A stretch of DNA of 55,665 bases from a virus (IMGVR_UViG_3300045988_036843:1-55665), one strand, 5' to 3'; positions 4,467 through 29,410 are shown, numbered from the stretch's first letter. The notes: generated from the letters alone by a model not told the origin. Translations and numbers: made by a program.

Positions 4467-4981
4467 TTGCCGATAGTCGCAGTCATTCTTTGCTTCCGTC
4501 TCACTTTGCCCTCCGATTGGACGAATAGTCGTTGGCATCTGTGCATCTGGCTGCTATCATCGCTGGAAAGGCGCGTAGGAGCCTGTCTGCCGCGTTTTTC
4601 TGATTGACCCAATAACTTTCACGTCTGACCTTGAAAAGCCGTTCTCCACGCTCCTGCATCGGGCTGATTGCGCGGTCTGGTTTGAGATATACCATCAGCA
4701 TCAACGGAGAGCCGCCTACGAGCGTCTGTGGCGCGTTTTTGCAATGAAACAGATAAAGTTATCGTCCAGTACCTAAAACGCCTTAAAACAGGCTTTCTCT
4801 CGGAGTTGGCGAAAAAACGAAAAGAGCCACTATCGCCGGTAGCCCTTTTACGTCCGTTATTTCATTGATGAAAAATATTTGCGAGGTTCAGGCGGTAACT
4901 TTATCGCCCAGACCCTGTTATCTGTTTTTCTTGCCTATTCTACTGTGACGATACGAACACAGAAGAGATGCTAGGCTACTA

Positions 4982-5257
4982 TCACTCAATCGCTTCGTAT
5001 GTTTTCTCGAAAATGTCAGGTTTACACGGGTAGATTTCGCCATTTACGCCACGAATGATATAATCGCCAGCCCTCGCAACCATAGTCCCTTCAAGCGTTT
5101 TAATCTCGCACCACGCAGGGTCATTGTAAAACTTTCCGAAGTTATGCGTGATAATATCATTGCTACTTACTGCATCCCAGAACCAATCCGCTCCAACAAG
5201 TCCTCGTGCATTGATCTTGAATGCTTCGATAACAACTGGCTTCTTTCTGTATTTCAT
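4982..5257 (-). CDS. PGDYG-domain-like phage protein (91 aa)
   Basis: ORF track 4982..5368. ATG 5257 ([13 protein letters not shown]) behind a GAGGAG RBS. C-terminal [26 protein letters not shown]. Confidence 0.6.
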
Positions 5258-5273
5258 GTTTATTCTCCTCTCG

Positions 5274-6497
5274 TTACATCCACACACATTCTTTGAACTG
5301 CTGCGTTTCCATCTGGAACGTGATGTCCAGTGACCCCACGTTGCCCTCTTTGTTCTTCTCAAGCGCAAAGTGATAATGCTGCTCTGGTCGCTTTTTCGTG
5401 GTCACGTTCTGCGCCAGCAGGATGATTGCATCTGCGTCCTGCTCAATCTGTCCGCTCTCTCGTAGGTCTGCGGCAGTCGGTGGAATACCTGCTCTTGCAG
5501 TCTCTCGATTGAGCTGTGCAAGTGCTACCACCAGCGTTCCTGTGGACTGCGCGAACTCATGCAGTGCCATGCTGATCTCCGTGACAGCACTGTATCGGTC
5601 TTTCGCTCCGGCTTGATGGATAAGCTGCAAATAGTCGATGAACACTACTTTGGCTTGCATCCTGATAGACTGCGTTCTAATCCACCCAACGCTCTTACCA
5701 GCGGCAGAGCGGACAAACAGAGGATATTTCTTGATGGCTGCCAGCCGGTCAAGTTCGTCAATGCTGACAGTCTTGTTTTTGACCGTGTGCAGCGGTACGC
5801 CTAGCTGGTTTGCGATAATACGGGCATAGAGTGTGTCCGGGTCGGTCTCTAGGCTGAAATACGCCACTTTGCGTCCGTTCTTGGCTATTTCACAGGCAAG
5901 TTGCAGGGACAGAGCGGTTTTACCCGCAGACGGTCTGCCGCCGATCACAACGAAGTTGCCCGGCACAAGATGCAAGTTGTTATCCAGAACTCTAAGCCCT
6001 GTACTGATATACTCCGGCTTATCATCCAGCTTGCGAATGTAGTTGTCTATGCCATCGCACATTGGGATGAAATCGCTTCTCTCGTTGTGCAGGTTGATAG
6101 CTTCGCCTAGCTGCTCATAGATGCCTGTCAAGTCTGCGTATCTGGTCGAGTTATCAACGATTTTGAACGCAATCTCTCTGGCTCTAGACAACGCTGCCTG
6201 TTCTTTGACGATTCTAGCCCATCCAAGCATCATGTCATGGGTGACGTTGCGGATGAACTCTGCACCAAAGGCATCCAGGCATTCACCCATTGCTTTCTTG
6301 CAGTTATCGTACCGCCCCATGACTTCTACCGGGTTCCACTTGTCATTGTGTTCCCAATATCCGAGAATGGCAGCGAATGTATCATGCAGTTCAGGGCAGA
6401 AATCGTCGATTTTAAGGTCTTGCAGCACATCGGCGTATTCCGAGAACGTGAGGACTGCCCCCAGCAGGATGTATTGGGTCTGATTTTCAATATTCAC
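5274..6497 (-). CDS. dnaB: Replicative DNA helicase, DnaB family
   Basis: 407 aa. Walker [25 protein letters not shown], and a RecA-like C-terminal domain with LAQLNRE and [10 protein letters not shown]. Confidence 0.85.
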
Positions 6498-15659: not shown

Positions 15660-16292
15660 TCATTCTCCTTTGTTATCCGGCTGAACCGGGATGTTGTAAT
15701 ACTCACGGATGGTCTTGTCTACGGCGGCGAGGTCGTTCTCGATCAGCGCATCGTTGAACATCCCAAGAGGGGTTTTCACGGTGTCCATCCCATCGTTACG
15801 AGTGCTAAACAGGTATCGCCCGTCCTGCACAACGGTTTTCAGAACGATGGTGAAGTACCCTTCGATGCAAACTTTTTCGTCCAGCATCTTTCCTACCGTC
15901 TTGAATTTTTCTCCACCGTTTTCTCCGAATTCGCTGTGCCCGAAAAAGTAGACAACCACATCATCCGGCAGTTCCTTTGCCCGCATCAGCAGAGTGTTGA
16001 AGTTGGCTGCCATGTCGGTAAACTTCTGGTATCCAGCGACCTTTGCGTTCCGCATGAACTCGCCGGTCATAAGGTATGTGGCATCGTCAATGACGATAGA
16101 CTTACGCTTGGTGCTGTGGATTGCGACATCAATCTTGTCGTAGTTGTTGGTGATATAGGTTTTCATGTTGCTGCGGAACGGCAGCGGTTTGCCAAGAACG
16201 TTGATAACCGCAACCTGTTCGGGGTCAAAGTTCCGAAGCGAAGCGGATTTACCGCTGCCGGAGTGACCGTAGACCATTACTAATACTGCCAT
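15660..16292 (-). CDS. Sak4-like (AAA_24) RecA-fold ssDNA-annealing ATPase
   Basis: 210 aa. Walker A GHSGSGKS at the N-terminus and Walker B IVIDD. Confidence 0.7.
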   Translation of the reverse strand: MAVLVMVYGHSGSGKSASLRNFDPEQVAVINVLGKPLPFRSNMKTYITNNYDKIDVAIHSTKRKSIVIDDATYLMTGEFMRNAKVAGYQKFTDMAANFNTLLMRAKELPDDVVVYFFGHSEFGENGGEKFKTVGKMLDEKVCIEGYFTIVLKTVVQDGRYLFSTRNDGMDTVKTPLGMFNDALIENDLAAVDKTIREYYNIPVQPDNKGE

Positions 16293-16309
16293 TTTTCTTT
16301 CCTTTCTTC

Positions 16310-16359
16310 GGCTTCATTAGGCTTCATTGTTATTACTTTGGCTTAATACGGCTTCACAA
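16310..16359 (-). repeat. Five-slot 10-bp phased array of GGCTT(C/A)A units (reverse complement T(G/T)AAGCC)
   Basis: GGCTT starts at 16310, 16320, 16340 and 16350, in exact 10-bp register. The 16330 slot is degenerate. The array lies 18-67 nt upstream of the Sak4-like start. Confidence 0.8.
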
Positions 16360-16361
16360 AA

Positions 16362-16574
16362 TCAGCCAGCCATCAGTTCTGCCATCTGGTGATACAAATC
16401 TCTCAATTCGGATTCCCTGCTGTCGATTTCAGCCTGCAATTCTTCGATTTGCTCCAAACGCTCCGATTCTCTTTCTGCCAAGACATCACATCTGTCCATG
16501 TAAAGCTCTCGATCGTCAGGTTCTTCTCCGCCAAAACGGTCATACTTGCCGGAGCAGTCAAACATTTCGTTCAT
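16362..16574 (-). CDS. Acidic coiled-coil hypothetical protein (70 aa)
   Basis: ORF track 16362..16589. ATG 16574 behind a GGAGGG RBS. Confidence 0.5.
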   Translation of the reverse strand: MNEMFDCSGKYDRFGGEEPDDRELYMDRCDVLAERESERLEQIEELQAEIDSRESELRDLYHQMAELMAG

Positions 16575-16831
16575 TCTGCATCCCTCCATTTGCTGGTGTG
16601 ATGTGTTACACGGCTGATTTTCTTGCTTTTACGGTTTCCATATTCGTTTTCCGCATTAACGCCAAGTGCGCACATGACAAGTGCCACAGCCAAAAGCGAA
16701 ACTGAGAGAAAAGTGTAAAATAGTCCAGCTCCAAGCGTTGTTGCGTTTTCAATTGAGCTTCCGCAGCCAACAGACCAGATCGAGAACAAAATCCCAACTG
16801 TAACCAATATCGTCCCTTTTACGCTTTTCAT
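16571..16831 (-). CDS. Small membrane protein (possible lipoprotein)
   Basis: 86 aa with two or three hydrophobic helices and an SVGCGSS lipobox-like motif. Confidence 0.5.
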   Translation of the reverse strand: MKSVKGTILVTVGILFSIWSVGCGSSIENATTLGAGLFYTFLSVSLLAVALVMCALGVNAENEYGNRKSKKISRVTHHTSKWRDAE

Positions 16832-19040: not shown

Positions 19041-19456
19041 TTTTTTGCTCCTTTCTTAATTTTTGGCTCCATGCCAGCCAAAACAGGCCGCTCCTTACGG
19101 TAACGCACCGTGACTAAACGTGCCGAAACTCACCTTACCAGCCCTACCACATCGCAACTCAACGCACCAAACCAGATTGCACCTTACCGGGCCTGCCAGA
19201 CCGTTCCATACATATCCGCAACGTGACTAACCACGCCAGCCGTTCCCTGCCTTTCCTGAGCTTAACTTGCCATACCTTAACAGCCTAACCTCGCCGGAAC
19301 CCAACATAAACCGCCTAGCCTAACCAGCCTTAACGGACCTATCGCTAACATTCCTAAACAAGCCGAACCCCGACTGCCTTGCCAAGCCTCAACGCACAGC
19401 GCCTTAACTCGCCAAAACGCTCCTAGCCTCGCCTCTCCGCAACAGCCAAAAGAGCG

Positions 19457-20146
19457 TTATTCGCTCAGTTCAACATGGAATGCGCCCCAGCTACCGCCCT
19501 TTTCGATGCGCCACTCACCAAGACCGCACTGGCCACCGCCAGCATTCAGCATATTCACGATGTCGGACAAGCTGAAGTTGCCGTTCTCGTTGAAGGAGAT
19601 GGTAACATCCATGTACCAGTTGGCGAACTCAGGACGATAGCGCAGGTCTGCGGTTCCCATGCCGATACGAACAGAATCCTCACGACCTACGAACTTCGGC
19701 TCGCCTTCCGGCTTGAAGGACTTAATTTCGATGAACTCAGAACCGTTGTCACCGAAAATCATAAATGCGCCACGAGCGGAAACCTTATCCTTCGTCCAGC
19801 CCAGACGGAATGCAGCGGAAACGGCAGCAGCCTTAACAGCGCAAGCAGGGAAACCGAACTGCTCAGATGCTGCGTACTTGTCCAGCAGCTCTTCTGTCCA
19901 GTCAGCGTAGGCAACGTCCGGCTTGCCGTTCATCCAGTAAAGGGCTTCAGCGATTTCGCCGTAGACGTTCTTAGCCTGCTTCTTATCCTTCTTGAGCTTC
20001 GTACCCTGCTGAGATGCAAGCAGCTCCTTCTTCGCCTTCTCGCTCCATGCGTGGACAATCAGCGGAGAATCGCCAATAATGCGGATTTTGGCGGTTTTCT
20101 TGACAATGGGCTTGATGCAGACAACGGTAGCTTCTTTCTTAGTCAT
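19457..20146 (-). CDS. Conserved phage hypothetical protein (229 aa)
   Basis: ORF track 19457..20182. ATG 20146 preferred. C-terminal GLGEWRIEKGGSWGAFHV motif; family not recognised. Confidence 0.6.
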   Translation of the reverse strand: MTKKEATVVCIKPIVKKTAKIRIIGDSPLIVHAWSEKAKKELLASQQGTKLKKDKKQAKNVYGEIAEALYWMNGKPDVAYADWTEELLDKYAASEQFGFPACAVKAAAVSAAFRLGWTKDKVSARGAFMIFGDNGSEFIEIKSFKPEGEPKFVGREDSVRIGMGTADLRYRPEFANWYMDVTISFNENGNFSLSDIVNMLNAGGGQCGLGEWRIEKGGSWGAFHVELSE

Positions 20147-20455: not shown

Positions 20456-20588
20456 TTGACAAGTACGGAAAACTGTACTAATATAAGGGTGTAGAGAGTT
20501 TATATTGTACAGCGTTCTGTACTGCCCATGTCTGTATTATAGTACAAGCTTCTGTACAAGTCAACTCTTTTGTACAAAATTCTGTGCA
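20456..20588. promoter_or_regulatory. Genetic switch: four 18-bp operators (WGTAC-N8-GTRCW) and two consensus promoters that cross each other
   Basis: Operators at 20462-79, 20506-23, 20541-58 and 20571-88. Plus-strand promoter TTGACA (20456-61)-17-TAATAT (20479-84). Minus-strand promoter TTGACT (20559-64)-17-TATAAT (20536-41). Each spacer is an operator. Confidence 0.65.
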
Positions 20589-22640: not shown

Positions 22641-22953
22641 TTGTCGAATTATCGCAGTTTTTGAAGAACATCTTGTACACCTTTCAACGAATTGATTTCT
22701 ACTTGTGATGCATATATTTCTCTTGTTGCGTAGATAAATAACGTTAATATGTTATGTTTTTGCTCGCCCTAGCAAAATTATAACTTGATTATCAAAACTA
22801 AAACCTGTGCACATTAAGTACACCATTGTGTAAAATTGACTTTCATTTTGATAAAATAAGAAAAAAATAGAGATTATGGAGCTTCTTCTTTTGTTTAGTA
22901 GAAGATTATTTAACTCTTGTTTATAATCTTGTTTATATATAATGTAAGAATGG

Positions 22954-23044
22954 GTACGAGATGTGCATGATTGGGTACGAGATGTGCATAAGCGTGTACG
23001 AGATGTGCATCAAATAAGGGGGTCTATGTGTACAAGATGTGCAT
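22954..23044 (+). repeat. Four iterons GTAC(G/A)AGATGTGCAT upstream of rep
   Basis: Copies at 22954-68, 22975-89 and 22996-23010 (21-bp spacing) and at 23030-44. An AT-rich region precedes them. Additional GTACAC(C) motifs lie nearby. Confidence 0.8.
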
Positions 23045-23100
23045 GAATCAATGTAAGTGAATAAAACTATTGACGTGTACACCTTTATGTGATAAAATGA

Positions 23101-24201
23101 GTGTACAGAGAAAGGAGATGTACACTATTGGCAGAACTTTACGAAAATAACCTGATTGAAAAAAGCAAGGCGCTTGTTTGGGCAGAGTTTAATGATTACA
23201 CTGTTGGAGAACTGCGGCTTTTGGAAGTATATCTTAGCCGTATCAATCCTAGAGATGAAAAATCTAGCGAAGTCAAGTTTACCCTTTCGGAATATTGCGA
23301 TTTGCTTGGGCTGCGTGTTAATAGCAGGAACATCGAGAAACAAATTGAACATTTTCTTGGAAACGTTGTGACGCTTCCCCTTAATGATGATGGAAGCGAG
23401 TACAATATGTATACGCTTTTTACGAAAGCAAGTGTTACGATTGATAAAAACTTAGGAATGTACGTCGTTACCCTCTGCTGCAATCCTGAATTGAGAAGTG
23501 TTTTCTTCGATATTGCTAAGAGCGGTTATATCAAGTATAGACTTCGCTATACGGTTAAAATGAAATCGCAGTATAGCATTCTGCTCTATTCGATGCTGCG
23601 AGATATGATGAATCGTGGTGGAGACCATTTTGATATCAGCATCAATCGGCTCCGTTCACATCTCGGCGCAAATGCAGGATGCTATGAGAGTTTCAAAAAC
23701 TTTAGACGGAGAGTTTTGGATGCAGCAGTTGAAGAAATCAATGATGTGTCAGACATTTATGTTACTTACGAAAAAATCTCGTTTGGAAACAAGGCTGTTG
23801 CCGTTTCTTTTGTCGCCAAGAAAAAAGACGAAAAGCCTGTCGCTGAATTAAAGGCGAAAGAATATAAAGAGGAACTTCCGTTCAATGACAACATTCTTGT
23901 CAGCCGACCGAATAAAAAGGCTTACAGTGATGTAGATTGGGAGAATATAGCGCCAGACCTTGAGAAATCAGAGTGCATCGGCATTGCAAGAATGGTTGGG
24001 AAAAGGATGATCGAGAGCTTCCCTGCTATTAAGGCTCATAAGAAGAAAGCTGCCGTTGTAAATATTGTGAGTAATGCGTACAATAAAATCTTGAAAGACA
24101 AGAAGGAATGGCCTGATAACCCCGCTGGCTATCTTTACAGAGTTATCGAAAACTCCGACTTGGATGAGTTTGCGACTTTTGACGATAGCTTCTTGAAGTA
24201 G
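23101..24201 (+). CDS. rep: Plasmid-type replication initiator (Rep_3/RepB-like winged-helix)
   Basis: 366 aa. The layout NNLIEKSKALVWA...ELRLLEVYLSRI...YIKYRLRYTVKMKSQYSILLYSML...FKNFRRRVLDAAVEEIN, plus upstream iterons, resembles theta-plasmid initiators. Start is GTG 23101 or TTG 23128. Confidence 0.65.
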   Translation: MYRERRCTLLAELYENNLIEKSKALVWAEFNDYTVGELRLLEVYLSRINPRDEKSSEVKFTLSEYCDLLGLRVNSRNIEKQIEHFLGNVVTLPLNDDGSEYNMYTLFTKASVTIDKNLGMYVVTLCCNPELRSVFFDIAKSGYIKYRLRYTVKMKSQYSILLYSMLRDMMNRGGDHFDISINRLRSHLGANAGCYESFKNFRRRVLDAAVEEINDVSDIYVTYEKISFGNKAVAVSFVAKKKDEKPVAELKAKEYKEELPFNDNILVSRPNKKAYSDVDWENIAPDLEKSECIGIARMVGKRMIESFPAIKAHKKKAAVVNIVSNAYNKILKDKKEWPDNPAGYLYRVIENSDLDEFATFDDSFLK

Positions 24202-24255
24202 TCAGATGCAGCGCATTAAACAGAATGAGCAGACAATGCAGAAAGGAGAAAGAGT

Positions 24256-24537
24256 ATGATTCCGATGTTTCCGAAAGGATATGACAAGGACAAGTGGTAC
24301 ATGACCAAAGATGTTATGCCGGATAAAAGCCTAGAAAGATGGCCGCATGGGCTTTTACTTCGTGTCGAAGATGAGAAAACAGGAGAAAAAAGTTTCATAA
24401 CCGGCGAGTACGATACAATCAATGGCAAATGGTTTGATTCCGATAGTAATGAAATCAAAGGAGCTGTAATTGCATGGCACGTCACGCCTGTGTTGTGGGT
24501 CGGAGACGAGATAAAAGCAGCATATCCGTTCTACTAA
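24256..24537 (+). CDS. DUF551-like hypothetical protein (93 aa)
   Basis: AAAGGAG RBS. KWYMTKDVMPD...GAVIAWHVTP. Confidence 0.5.
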   Translation: MIPMFPKGYDKDKWYMTKDVMPDKSLERWPHGLLLRVEDEKTGEKSFITGEYDTINGKWFDSDSNEIKGAVIAWHVTPVLWVGDEIKAAYPFY

Positions 24538-25175: not shown

Positions 25176-25955
25176 ATGGCAAAAATCATAGCTGTCGCCA
25201 ATCAGAAGGGCGGCACAGGAAAGACCACAACAAGCACCTGTTTGGCTGGTGCGTTGCAGTTACTTGGCGAGAAGGTCTTGCTAGTGGACTGCGATGCCCA
25301 GTGCAACGCAACGGACACCTACGGCGCACAGACAGAGGACGTATGCACCCTGTTTGATGTGATGACCAGGCAGGGCACGGTCGAAGAAGGAATCCAGCAC
25401 TGTGAAGCTGGTGACATTCTTCCGTCTGATAACGCATTGAAGGACATTGACGAACAGCTTGTGCGGGACATAGGCAAGAACTTCCGGCTGCGAGAAGCCC
25501 TTGAAAGCGTGTCTGAGCAGTATGATTACATTGTGTTGGACACTCCCCCGCAGCTTGGTCTTGCGCTTGTGAACGCTCTGATCGCCGCCAACAGCATCAT
25601 CGTGCCCATCACAGCAGACCGATATGCACTGGCTGGTTTGAGCCAGCTTTCGCAGACCATCGGCGATGTTCGCAGATATTTCAATCCGACTTTGAAGATT
25701 GAAGGATTGCTTCTGAATCAGTACAAGAGCCGTGAGAACCTGTCCAAAGAGGTTGTGGAGCAGCTTCCTGTGATTGCACAGAGCATGGGAACAACCCTGC
25801 TGGATGTGAAGATTAGACCATCTATGGGCGTCCGTAAGGCGCAGGCAGAGCGTCACAGCCTGTTTAGCGGAGACACGGCAAAGAGCACCAGCGCAGAGGA
25901 TTTCAAGGCGTTGGCGCAGATGATTGTGGAGGGAGATAACAATGCGACTGATTGA
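25176..25955 (+). CDS. parA: ParA/Soj-family partition ATPase
   Basis: 259 aa. Deviant Walker A ANQKGGTGKTTT, DCDAQ, IVLDTPP. Confidence 0.85.
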   Translation: MAKIIAVANQKGGTGKTTTSTCLAGALQLLGEKVLLVDCDAQCNATDTYGAQTEDVCTLFDVMTRQGTVEEGIQHCEAGDILPSDNALKDIDEQLVRDIGKNFRLREALESVSEQYDYIVLDTPPQLGLALVNALIAANSIIVPITADRYALAGLSQLSQTIGDVRRYFNPTLKIEGLLLNQYKSRENLSKEVVEQLPVIAQSMGTTLLDVKIRPSMGVRKAQAERHSLFSGDTAKSTSAEDFKALAQMIVEGDNNATD

Positions 25956-26277
25956 CGGCGAAATCGTTCAGAGTGAGATTTCTGGTTATTGGGCTGGAGC
26001 TAAAAGCAAGGAAGAAAAAGACGCATATATGGACGCTCTTGTGGCAGTTATGGACACAGCAGAGTTTCAAAAATGGACACCAACAAACTATGAATGGGAT
26101 TTGCCAAAAGAGAAGAAAGAAGTTTTGTTGGCTGACAAAGATGGAAGCATTTATATTGGATATTATTGGAAAGGGCTTTGGTGGAATAATCGGGGAATTG
26201 TAAAACAGTTCAATCCGGGAGAAATTGAATATTGGATGCCAATTCGTGAACTTCCGAAGAAAGTAGAGGAAATGTAA
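25942..26277 (+). CDS. DUF551-like protein (111 aa) between parA and the RHH gene
   Basis: ORF track 25924..26277. ATG 25942 behind a GGAGGGAG RBS. ...EIEYWMPIRELPKK. Confidence 0.5.
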   Translation: MRLIDGEIVQSEISGYWAGAKSKEEKDAYMDALVAVMDTAEFQKWTPTNYEWDLPKEKKEVLLADKDGSIYIGYYWKGLWWNNRGIVKQFNPGEIEYWMPIRELPKKVEEM

Positions 26278-26278
26278 A

Positions 26279-26851
26279 ATGAAATCAACCAGCAAAAAAT
26301 CCTCAGGCTTGCTTGGCGGGTTTGATTTCCGGCCTATTTTTTCGGAGCAGGCATTAAGCCGAAGTGAGCCAAAGGAAGAAGAAGTAAGCCAAGCAAAGCC
26401 GAACGAAGCTGAACAAGCACCGATTAAGCCCAGTGAAGCCACAGACAGCCATGCACAGCCCAATGAAGCACAGTTAAGCAGTATTAAGCCGAAGCATGCC
26501 AAAGACAGCGAAATACAGCCAAACAATGCCGTAGTAAGCGAAAGTAAGCCAAAGAAGTTGAAACAGGCGAGGGAAGTTCAACGTCTTATCGAACAGGGCG
26601 ATGTTCCCGGCGCACTAGCCGAAGCTGGTTTGACAAAGAAAAAAATCCCGATGCCAGTATCGCATCAGGGCGTTGCAAGTGGCGATGGCAAGCGTTCAAA
26701 GCGCATTACCATCCTTATGAGCGAGGAAGAGCGCAAGTACATCAACCGTGAAGCCAGACGGCATGGAATGACGATTGGGCAGTTCGTGTACGCTCTGGCG
26801 GTTGCAGCGGCAGAGGGAAAGATTGAGTTGGAGGATTTCTTGGAGGATTGA
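26279..26851 (+). CDS. Ribbon-helix-helix protein with 10-aa tandem repeats (candidate centromere-binding protein/regulator)
   Basis: 190 aa. C-terminal KRITILMSEEERKYINREARRHGMTIGQFVYALAV is an RHH fold. The N-terminal half has (xxxKPxEAxx)n repeats. Confidence 0.6.
   Translation: MKSTSKKSSGLLGGFDFRPIFSEQALSRSEPKEEEVSQAKPNEAEQAPIKPSEATDSHAQPNEAQLSSIKPKHAKDSEIQPNNAVVSESKPKKLKQAREVQRLIEQGDVPGALAEAGLTKKKIPMPVSHQGVASGDGKRSKRITILMSEEERKYINREARRHGMTIGQFVYALAVAAAEGKIELEDFLED
26351..26550 (+). repeat. 20 tandem 10-bp units (NNNNWRAGCC) in perfect register inside CDS 26279..26851
   Basis: Eleven units end exactly in AGCC and most others differ by 1-2 bases. There are no indels over 200 bp. Confidence 0.9.
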
Positions 26852-27721: not shown

Positions 27722-27767
27722 AAAAACCCCCTGTACGGAATTATAACCGTACAGGGGGTTCTGTTTT
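27722..27767. terminator. Bidirectional rho-independent terminator
   Basis: Perfect 12-bp stem CCCCCTGTACGG/CCGTACAGGGGG (27727-38 / 27747-58) flanked by an A-run and a T-run. Confidence 0.8.
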
Positions 27768-28688: not shown

Positions 28689-29207
28689 TTATTCTCCTTT
28701 CTTCGCTGCGGCAGTGGGCTTAGAAAAGCTCTTCTGCCACTTTTCCAGTTCATCCAGTCGGTGCACGAGGGCATTGTACTGCTCAATAGGCACATACTGC
28801 TGTGTCGGTGCAGCGGCCTGCTGTGCCTGTTGTGCTTGCATCTGTCTCCACGCTTCCGGGCTGTAAAACTCCTGCACATAGGATTCACAGGTGTCCGGGT
28901 TGAGCCGCTTGCAGTAGATCACGCCACTGCGCAAGTCCGGGCAGTAGGTCGGTCTGCCGTACAGGTCGGATGGTATTGCCAAAAATTCTTCCCTGCTGGA
29001 GACAGGTCTGCCAAGCAACCAGCCGCCATCTTGTGCCGACTGCTGAACAGGCTGCTGCCCATTCATCGGCTGTGGACGCTGCGGCTGTGCCTGTTGCATC
29101 TGCGTGTTGGGTAGGGGAGTGGCAAGCCCAACTGTGCCCATGCCACCGTAAGGATTGACAGGCTGTTGCGGAACGTAGGGCGCTCCGGGTGTCGGATAAT
29201 AGCTCAT
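28689..29207 (-). CDS. Gln/Pro-rich hypothetical protein (172 aa)
   Basis: ORF track 28689..29300. ATG 29207 behind an AAGGAGGGG RBS. Confidence 0.55.
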   Translation of the reverse strand: MSYYPTPGAPYVPQQPVNPYGGMGTVGLATPLPNTQMQQAQPQRPQPMNGQQPVQQSAQDGGWLLGRPVSSREEFLAIPSDLYGRPTYCPDLRSGVIYCKRLNPDTCESYVQEFYSPEAWRQMQAQQAQQAAAPTQQYVPIEQYNALVHRLDELEKWQKSFSKPTAAAKKGE

Positions 29208-29410
29208 AAAACACCCCTCCTTGTGCATCCAGTGTACCGCATCGGCAAAAAGCGAAGGACAACGAAGGTATAACGAAGGACAAAAAAGAAAAGCGCCCAC
29301 ACGGAAAAAACCGCATGAGCGCTTAACTATTAAAGGTGCACACTTTGAAGTGCAATACTAAAATATCACGTTTTGACTTGCAAGACAAGAGTTTCGACAA
29401 AACTAGTGTA

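Follow-up and report, generated by a model that had tools for sequence, protein, structure and literature searches.

A conserved, phased 10-bp repeat array heading the recombination module of a gut phage-plasmid: a putative satellite binding array of a ribbon-helix-helix partition protein

Gene layout and the two phased type-A arrays

The window analysed here, a stretch of 55,665 nucleotides (IMGVR_UViG_3300045988_036843), comprises most of a tailed-phage genome of about 58 kb from human gut metagenomes, with relatives of 51-63 kb in IMG/VR and MT836154 and MT836051 as the nearest GenBank records. The lineage is very abundant and comprises 818 protein clusters, including one with 3,621 members. 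From about 20535 down to about 4980, the minus strand carries a tightly packed early operon, which includes genes for a Sak4-like ssDNA-annealing protein, a methyltransferase, a Holliday-junction resolvase and a DnaB-like helicase. On the plus strand, a plasmid-type block encodes two HTH regulators, iterons, a Rep3-family initiator, a methyltransferase, a small ParA, an ORF of 111 aa and a 190-aa protein with a predicted ribbon-helix-helix (RHH) domain (Table 1). Because the best plasmid match of the Rep protein is located on a Mediterraneibacter gnavus plasmid (40% identity), the host is probably a member of the Clostridia.

Table 1. Features of the window that are relevant for the phased arrays
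Feature	Position	Strand	Details
Sak4-like ssDNA-annealing protein gene	15660..16292	-	phrog_2872, E 3.5e-74; PF13479
Degenerate sixth unit GAAGAAAGGA and spacer to the Sak4 ATG	16293..16309	-	in register; includes the Shine-Dalgarno sequence
Type-A mini-array	16310..16359	-	five 10-bp units, in sense TTGTGAAGCC, GTATTAAGCC, AAAGTAATAA (degenerate), CAATGAAGCC, TAATGAAGCC
Small ORF upstream of the mini-array	16362..16589	-	70-75 aa; stop codon 2 nt from the array
Near-consensus promoter	20564-20536		TTGACT-17-TATAAT
Plasmid-type replication module	22951..24201	+	iterons 22951-23010; promoter-like site 23070-23098; Rep3-family initiator gene 23101..24201
Type-B mini-array	24205..24240	+	four 9-bp units GATGCAGCG, CATTAAACA, GAATGAGCA, GACAATGCA
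Small Walker-type ParA gene	25176..25955	+	259 aa; phrog_164, E 5.8e-58; PF13614 (residues 2-175), PF01656
Candidate ParB-like centromere-binding protein gene	26279..26851	+	190 aa; conserved N-terminal peptide, predicted disordered linker, predicted C-terminal RHH domain
Type-A long array	26351..26550	+	twenty 10-bp units without indels, consensus GAAGTAAGCC
Near-consensus promoter	28672-28645		found by sigma-70 scan

The Sak4 gene is the first gene of the recombination module in the window and is separated from the co-directional small ORF by a gap of 69 nt, which is filled by the mini-array. On the plus strand, positions 16310-16359 read GGCTTCATTA GGCTTCATTG TTATTACTTT GGCTTAATAC GGCTTCACAA. 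The units stand in exact 10-bp register, four of the five ending with AAGCC in the sense direction and one being degenerate. Read on the minus strand, which is the sense strand for the Sak4 gene and its local neighbours, the gap consists of the TGA stop codon of the small ORF, TT, the units TTGTGAAGCC to TAATGAAGCC, the unit GAAGAAAGGA, AAGAAAA and the ATG. The unit GAAGAAAGGA agrees with the type-A consensus GAAGTAAGCC at seven of ten positions, which gives a layout of two strong, one degenerate and two strong units followed by a degenerate sixth. GTATTAAGCC has the same sequence as the intragenic unit 26481-26490, and a single nucleotide distinguishes CAATGAAGCC from the unit 26461-26470. 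Sequence, coordinates and these two unit comparisons had been given by the first-pass annotation of this DNA and proved exact on re-reading; its assignment of the downstream gene as Sak4-like is likewise borne out by the phrog_2872 match. Its description of the mini-array as inverted applies only with respect to the plus strand, since both arrays carry the motif on the sense strand when viewed relative to transcription.

The long type-A array is located in the coding sequence for the disordered linker of the RHH protein. Its 20 units keep a perfect 10-bp register over 200 bp, hence the motif passes through all three reading frames. Among 30 distinct relatives, the column entropy followed the phase of the units, with 0.69 for the first position compared to 0.14-0.19 for the G and C positions, and the entropy per codon position was nearly flat within the array (0.31/0.26/0.40) compared to 0.10/0.06/0.57 in the RHH domain of the same gene. 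The sole length variant differs by 60 bp and preserves both the reading frame and the register. Judged from these profiles, the long array is under selection at the DNA level.

Iterated short repeats close to the par genes are a hallmark of type Ib partition loci and are found here as the twenty 10-bp units; as in that type, the ParA protein has no N-terminal HTH domain. The RHH gene is linked to this small ParA next to Rep3, with one uncharacterised ORF (25942..26277) separating the two genes in the window. The Pfam NikA-like RHH model matched the RHH protein with 25.2 bits, which is below its cutoff of 27. An AF2 model predicted a C-terminal strand-helix-helix fold with pLDDT values of 81-86 and a disordered linker at residues 24-91 (pLDDT <50). 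Foldseek returned 29 matches, nearly all of them RHH proteins (CopG, Arc, TacA, AmrZ, ParG, NikA), with non-significant E-values of at least 0.8; the better ones reached target-normalised TM-scores of about 0.5-0.9, again with non-significant E-values. A search of PDB sequences with the profile of the RHH family gave no match. An exhaustive HMM search around the RHH protein recovered only a small, diverged family, all members of which share the N-terminal peptide (MK.TSKK.SGLLGGFDF in the family alignment) and the RHH domain, with a linker of variable length. As a side observation, the protein P0129 has an RHH domain that shares the KRSKRITILM strand with the window protein but is fused to a different N-terminal region of about 240 aa, which looks Bro-N/antirepressor-like by eye; this fusion suggests domain shuffling of the DNA-binding module.

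The pattern GGCTTN5GGCTT was found four times in the window, always at the two arrays, against 0.16 occurrences expected from dinucleotide-preserving shuffles. T[GT]AAGCC occurs 21 times on both strands, comprising four copies in the mini-array, four in the intragenic array and 13 scattered ones, the latter number being near the approximately 14 copies estimated from uniform base frequencies. A position weight matrix (PWM) was trained on the 20 intragenic units alone and used to scan the window for phased 10-bp runs; because no unit of the mini-array entered the training, the resulting score is independent of the finding. The mini-array scored 37.3 for five units and 31.9 for four, with a shuffle maximum of 24-25 (100-200 shuffles), and was the best site outside the RHH gene, where the runner-up real site reached 22.2. 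The view that members of the same phased motif family occur at this non-coding site is thus upheld by a matrix built from intragenic units only, and background composition does not explain the phased array. Apart from these two type-A arrays, which lie 10 kb from each other, the PWM scan revealed no further one in the window, including the region upstream of parA. Two other sources of the motif were considered and rejected. The mini-array is not a transposed copy of the linker array, because the likeness between units is confined to motif positions and does not extend over contiguous sequence, and the Rep iterons represent unrelated 21-mers.

Conservation in relatives and covariation with the RHH type

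The mini-array was present in all 13 relatives that were first collected via DNA or Rep homology, and the scan of related genomes found it kept in every syntenic relative examined. In its exact form, TTAAGCC-N13-TGAAGCC-N3-TGAAGCC, it occurs as one copy each in at least 120 IMG/VR contigs; this pattern is a practical marker for the phage group. An unbiased set of 75 loci, collected via Rep or RHH homology and not via the motif, was reduced to 62 unique sequences. Among these, the entropy of the mini-array was 0.54, 0.33 and 0.39 at unit positions 1-3 and 0.00-0.18 at positions 4-10. The conservation is 10-bp periodic, follows the unit and not the flanks, and shows a profile resembling that of the long array. 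On the basis of this alignment, the mini-array is under purifying selection with 10-bp periodicity.

The genes on both sides of the array vary among the relatives. At least four kinds of downstream genes were found (Sak4, Erf, HNH, Zn-finger), and the array was retained with all of them. Among relatives such as L016, L017 and L024, the recombination module contains either Sak4 together with a 190-aa partner or Erf together with SSB, and sometimes an HNH endonuclease or Zn-finger gene is inserted between the array and the gene for the annealing protein. The upstream small gene exists in two unrelated alternative versions. The array therefore outlasts the replacement of its neighbours and always heads the recombination module, whichever annealing protein is encoded.

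Besides type A with its AAGCC code of 10 bp, three further types of the RHH gene were recovered at the DNA level, the loci of the P0131 family and of P0126 via Logan contigs. P0131 was not found in IMG/VR, P0126 and P0132 were not found in JGI metagenomes, and searches of genome contigs with the RHH protein and with P0132 gave no match. In type B (P0125-like, L135-L139), the linker is encoded by about 18 units of 9 bp with the consensus GAwTGAGCA, and these 9-bp units recur as a short array after rep, in the space from its stop codon to the Shine-Dalgarno sequence of the following gene. Type C (P0131/P0145-like, L215 and L216) has a linker of 10-bp TACAGCG units and the gene order Rep3-ParA-RHH without an extra ORF, the RHH start overlapping the parA stop. 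Its remote array comprises five 10-bp TACAGCG units 3 kb away on the other strand (L215 5333-5382, minus strand), inside a gene (4963..5478) in the region coding for a Q-rich N-terminus; the gene product is 48% identical to that of 28689..29207 in the window. Here, too, an array of the binding type coincides with low-complexity coding sequence, as it does in the RHH gene. Finally, in type D (P0126, L217) the linker is made of 10-bp GTCAG/ACCAG units, six of which also fill the rep-parA gap with a score of 38.8 compared to a shuffle maximum of 23.5, and an ORF is situated between parA and the RHH gene at the same position as in the window.

For each type, the matrix built from the long array only scored the remote short array above every other site of the locus outside the long array, and the matrix of PWM scores across types is diagonal. 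The short arrays of types B and D are found between the rep and par genes and abut Shine-Dalgarno sequences in gaps that appeared promoter-less by inspection. All eight arrays carry the motif on the local sense strand. Motif and spacing thus change together at two loci and along with the RHH/par module, as would be expected if the DNA-binding protein of that module recognises both arrays. This covariation suggests that the binder is a product of the par module, and we infer that the RHH protein encoded beside ParA probably binds the array. The earlier suggestion of a phased array of DNA sites tied to the partition module hence gains support from the conservation, the 10-bp periodicity, the covariation across four types and the RHH-ParA linkage.

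The correspondence between satellite and resident RHH gene is looser in genomes that combine types A and B. The window itself contains a type-B mini-array, which is placed after the stop codon of rep and before the Shine-Dalgarno sequence of orf 24256..24537, its units being followed by GAAAGGAGAAAGAGT and the ATG. The type-B PWM, derived from long arrays of other genomes, scored this site with 29.7 compared to a shuffle maximum of 24.2; in motif and period, it agrees with the long array that type-B relatives carry in their RHH gene and not with the type-A array of the window's own RHH gene. According to a PWM survey, many type-A relatives harbour 2-5 type-B units at the same junction, flanked by varied genes. 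The reverse is also seen, in that the type-A mini-array is intact in genomes whose RHH gene is of type B; these include L137 and L139, in which only a type-B RHH gene is present within the 16-20 kb covered. In L135 (10001-11215) and L136 (10001-11185), the type-B RHH gene is complete, and directly behind it lies a type-A RHH gene that has lost its N-terminal part; residues 72-190 of the latter remain with 84% identity and with the last four A units included. Such a remnant beside the type-B gene suggests a recent replacement of the par type by recombination in these two genomes, which leaves part of the mismatched retention unexplained. In the sequences compared, retention of the mini-array does not strictly track the resident RHH type. 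The mismatched retention weakens a strict reading of one protein and one satellite and has lowered our confidence accordingly. Types A, B and C have an AGC core in common, and the strand residues predicted to face the DNA are similar when the alignment is read by eye (R-T-L, R-S-P and R-T-I, respectively); cross-recognition between RHH types is therefore conceivable.

Transcriptional context, known systems and alternative explanations

No sigma-70-like promoter was detected in the region 16293-16361, neither by scans over two ranges nor by hand inspection that included a consensus of 98 variants. The best hand-found pairing in this population consensus, TTGTAC-18-TAAGAA, agrees at 6 of 12 positions, compared to 10-11 of 12 matches that the same scan gave where control regions are expected, at 20564-20536, 21198-21171, 20456-20484 and 23070-23098. 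The gap also contains no terminator in the form of a hairpin followed by a T-run. The expectation of the first-pass annotation that a promoter would be situated at the mini-array is not confirmed, and the element is intra-operonic. With no promoter in the gap and the gap lying within a long minus-strand operon, an omega-like operator overlapping -35 and -10 elements is unlikely. Of the two models initially put forward, the promoter-overlapping operator has thus lost ground, whereas the N15-like dispersed centromere is still plausible.

Collectively, our data are best accommodated by the assumption that the mini-array represents a satellite binding array of the ParB-like RHH protein, which may act as an intra-operon roadblock operator, the role that we favour, and/or as an accessory centromere; we assign this reading a probability of about 0.5. 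In a partition system of type Ib (ParA/RHH), the RHH protein would take the place of ParB, as also suggested by the overlap of its gene with the parA stop in type C, and its main binding array of 20 units would be written into the linker-coding part of its own gene. RHH dimers might occupy consecutive 10-bp direct repeats in a cooperative manner, all on the same face of the helix, the mode of binding known from pCXC100 ParB and its 9-bp repeats. When bound, the satellite could function as an operator or roadblock inside the operon, so that less transcription would run on into the recombination and replication genes as long as the element persists as a plasmid, and it might provide a second anchoring point for the partition complex. 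The roadblock is inferred from the position of the array inside a long early operon, immediately next to the Shine-Dalgarno sequence of the gene that opens the recombination module; for this role in particular, we regard the chances as even or slightly below. The promoter-less short arrays of types B and D, which abut Shine-Dalgarno sequences between rep and par, fit such a control of read-through. The sense orientation of all eight arrays would also fit an orientation-dependent block, but it can also be explained by coding constraints on disordered linkers and by purine-rich sense strands. To our knowledge, an RHH protein acting as a roadblock against elongating RNA polymerase is not an established mechanism.

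Several known systems share parts of this arrangement. In pCXC100, RHH dimers of ParB bind cooperatively to nine unspaced, non-palindromic 9-bp direct repeats (PMC3074162). This geometry is that of the type-B arrays and close to the 10-bp type-A arrays; however, pCXC100 has a single centromere upstream of parA and not inside a gene, and no satellite array has been described. The parS sites of omega from pSM19035 double as operators, and at least four contiguous repeats activate ParA while two give tight binding (PMC9499535). Features that appear to be shared comprise an RHH centromere-binding protein with a flexible N-terminus, a small Walker-type ParA (delta), a Firmicutes host and several separate arrays of short, contiguous, non-palindromic repeats. 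The omega sites differ in being 7-bp heptads (WATCACW) over the promoter -35/-10 region, whereas 10-bp AAGCC units without a detectable promoter are found here, with the main array in the coding sequence of the binding protein itself and the satellite 10 kb off in a phage operon. For StbA of R388, a ten-repeat centromere (stbDR, repeats about one helical turn apart) is accompanied by operator arrays of 2, 3 or 5 repeats for unrelated genes (10.1101/2022.04.29.490116). The combination of a long array with satellites is alike, but StbA is an HTH protein without a ParA partner and its satellite arrays are situated in promoters.

Stoperators are asymmetric single sites of 13-14 bp, about 20-30 per genome, which lie in short intergenic gaps inside operons and in one orientation relative to transcription. 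These genome-wide repressor sites of Cluster A mycobacteriophages (L5 gp71) terminate transcription elongation where they are bound (PMC9283540). The layout at the mini-array is stoperator-like, with a 69-nt gap between co-directional genes, neither promoter nor terminator, and arrays that are all in sense orientation. Differences are that stoperators are bound by an HTH immunity repressor instead of a partition protein and occur as single sites instead of arrays. Some of the IR sites of the plasmid-prophage N15 are found near phage regulatory regions. Altogether, N15 has four separate inverted-repeat centromere sites (IR1-4) spread through the phage genome (PMC7205306). Here, too, copies of a centromere motif lie at separate places, namely as two type-A arrays; N15 uses a type Ia HTH ParB (SopB) and single palindromic sites, in contrast to the RHH-type protein and phased direct repeats of the present system.

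N15 also provides the precedent for a more restricted function, in which RHH binding to dispersed parS-like sites such as IR1-4 only builds or stabilises the partition complex and the expression of neighbouring genes is unaffected. We consider the satellite unlikely to be such a pure accessory centromere, even though its motif matches the main array and its gap has no promoter. The remote arrays stand at differing sites and in type C even within coding sequence, as if location were unimportant, and in this respect a position-tolerant centromere fits as well as, or better than, regulation. Against it, the arrays of types A, B and D invariably occupy the space from a stop codon to the Shine-Dalgarno sequence of the gene with which a module begins, the type-A mini-array is kept in genomes with type B only, and the two plus two strong units are at the lower limit if judged by the threshold of at least four contiguous repeats, which comes from the omega system. 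The mismatch between satellite and RHH type in A/B genomes would be easier to understand if a different phage or host factor bound both arrays and the RHH gene merely hosted the long one, the ORF between parA and the RHH gene in the window and in type D being an available candidate. We rate this as quite unlikely, because the long array invariably resides in the RHH gene, with a motif that varies along with the RHH type across four types, type C has only Rep, ParA and RHH in this order without the extra ORF, and a host factor would not be expected to yield four motif flavours within one phage group.

It is also conceivable that the element acts at the level of RNA or translation, as a purine-rich, unstructured 5' leader, an enhancer or a site for an RNA-binding protein, and that its likeness to the linker array results from purine composition. 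The sense orientation of the eight arrays, the contact of the three intergenic mini-arrays (A, B, D) with Shine-Dalgarno sequences and the unstructured leader agree with this possibility, which nevertheless appears improbable. Exact phasing of 9 or 10 nt over 40-200 nt with type-specific motifs is unexpected for a leader, the mini-array leader showed no stable RNA fold (z = -0.66) and no Rfam match, and the phased score of the mini-array is far above that of other purine-rich sense regions in the window; moreover, the orientation is explicable by the coding constraints and strand skew mentioned above. Alternative genes on both sides give the locus the appearance of a mosaic junction, and the array might have been conserved as a passive boundary for module-swapping homologous recombination with no binding function of its own. 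This explanation is very improbable, since it accounts neither for the 10-bp periodicity and the motif identity with the array in the RHH gene nor for the parallel pairs in types B, C and D; a crossover point would be a consequence of the conservation and not its cause.

Type Ib loci, in which ParA and an RHH protein use iterated repeats for partition and regulation, represent a known kind of system. New are a satellite without promoter that heads a phage recombination module, its pairing with a centromere-like array inside the coding sequence of the presumed binding protein, and the existence of at least four motif/spacing codes with satellites of two codes in one genome. If the RHH protein binds the satellite, one factor would link segregation in the plasmid state to the control of phage recombination and replication genes, in a lineage of gut phage-plasmids that is very common but uncultured and that comprises hundreds of protein clusters and at least 120 contigs carrying the exact site. 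Such a system could reveal how coding sequence accommodates binding arrays and whether partition proteins can serve as promoter-less elongation blocks. Furthermore, the four codes with their long and short arrays provide a natural experiment on the evolution of RHH specificity and of 9- versus 10-bp spacing. A wider generalisation, suggested by the sequence comparisons and in our view doubtful, is that this lineage of gut phage-plasmids uses RHH ParB-like proteins with centromeres written in 9- or 10-bp register into the linker-coding part of their own genes, that satellites are orientation-specific, promoter-less roadblocks gating the recombination and par modules, that the four or more codes (A-D) define incompatibility or cross-regulation groups, and that satellites of several codes let co-resident relatives regulate each other.

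Other repeat-rich and non-coding elements of the genome

Several further elements were observed in the window. The 21-bp iteron TGGGTACGAGATGTGCATAAG is present in about 2.9 copies and is followed by a TG-extended promoter-like site and then the Rep3 gene, i.e. a plasmid-type origin composed of iterons and Rep3 is located within a tailed-phage genome. On the minus strand, a non-coding stretch of 420 bp (19041-19460) separates a terminator-like hairpin (19466-19452) from the gene at the head of the early operon. It has 38% G on this strand and contains 9 of the 23 copies of G[GT]TA[AG]G[GC][CT] in the window; a search of this stretch against Rfam gave no match, and it could serve as a lytic origin or a further field of protein binding, or encode a non-coding RNA. 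Upstream of the gene 28689..29207 (minus strand), three tandem copies of about 10 bp (CGAAGGACAA) were found at 29253-29283. Similar repeats occur at the same place in type C (L215 5522-5556) and type D (L217 7470-7502); the sequence looks like a separate conserved operator-like set. Finally, a long perfect hairpin at 27723-27762, with a stem of 14-16 bp including 9 G-C pairs and a terminator score on both strands, closes the maintenance block on the plus strand.
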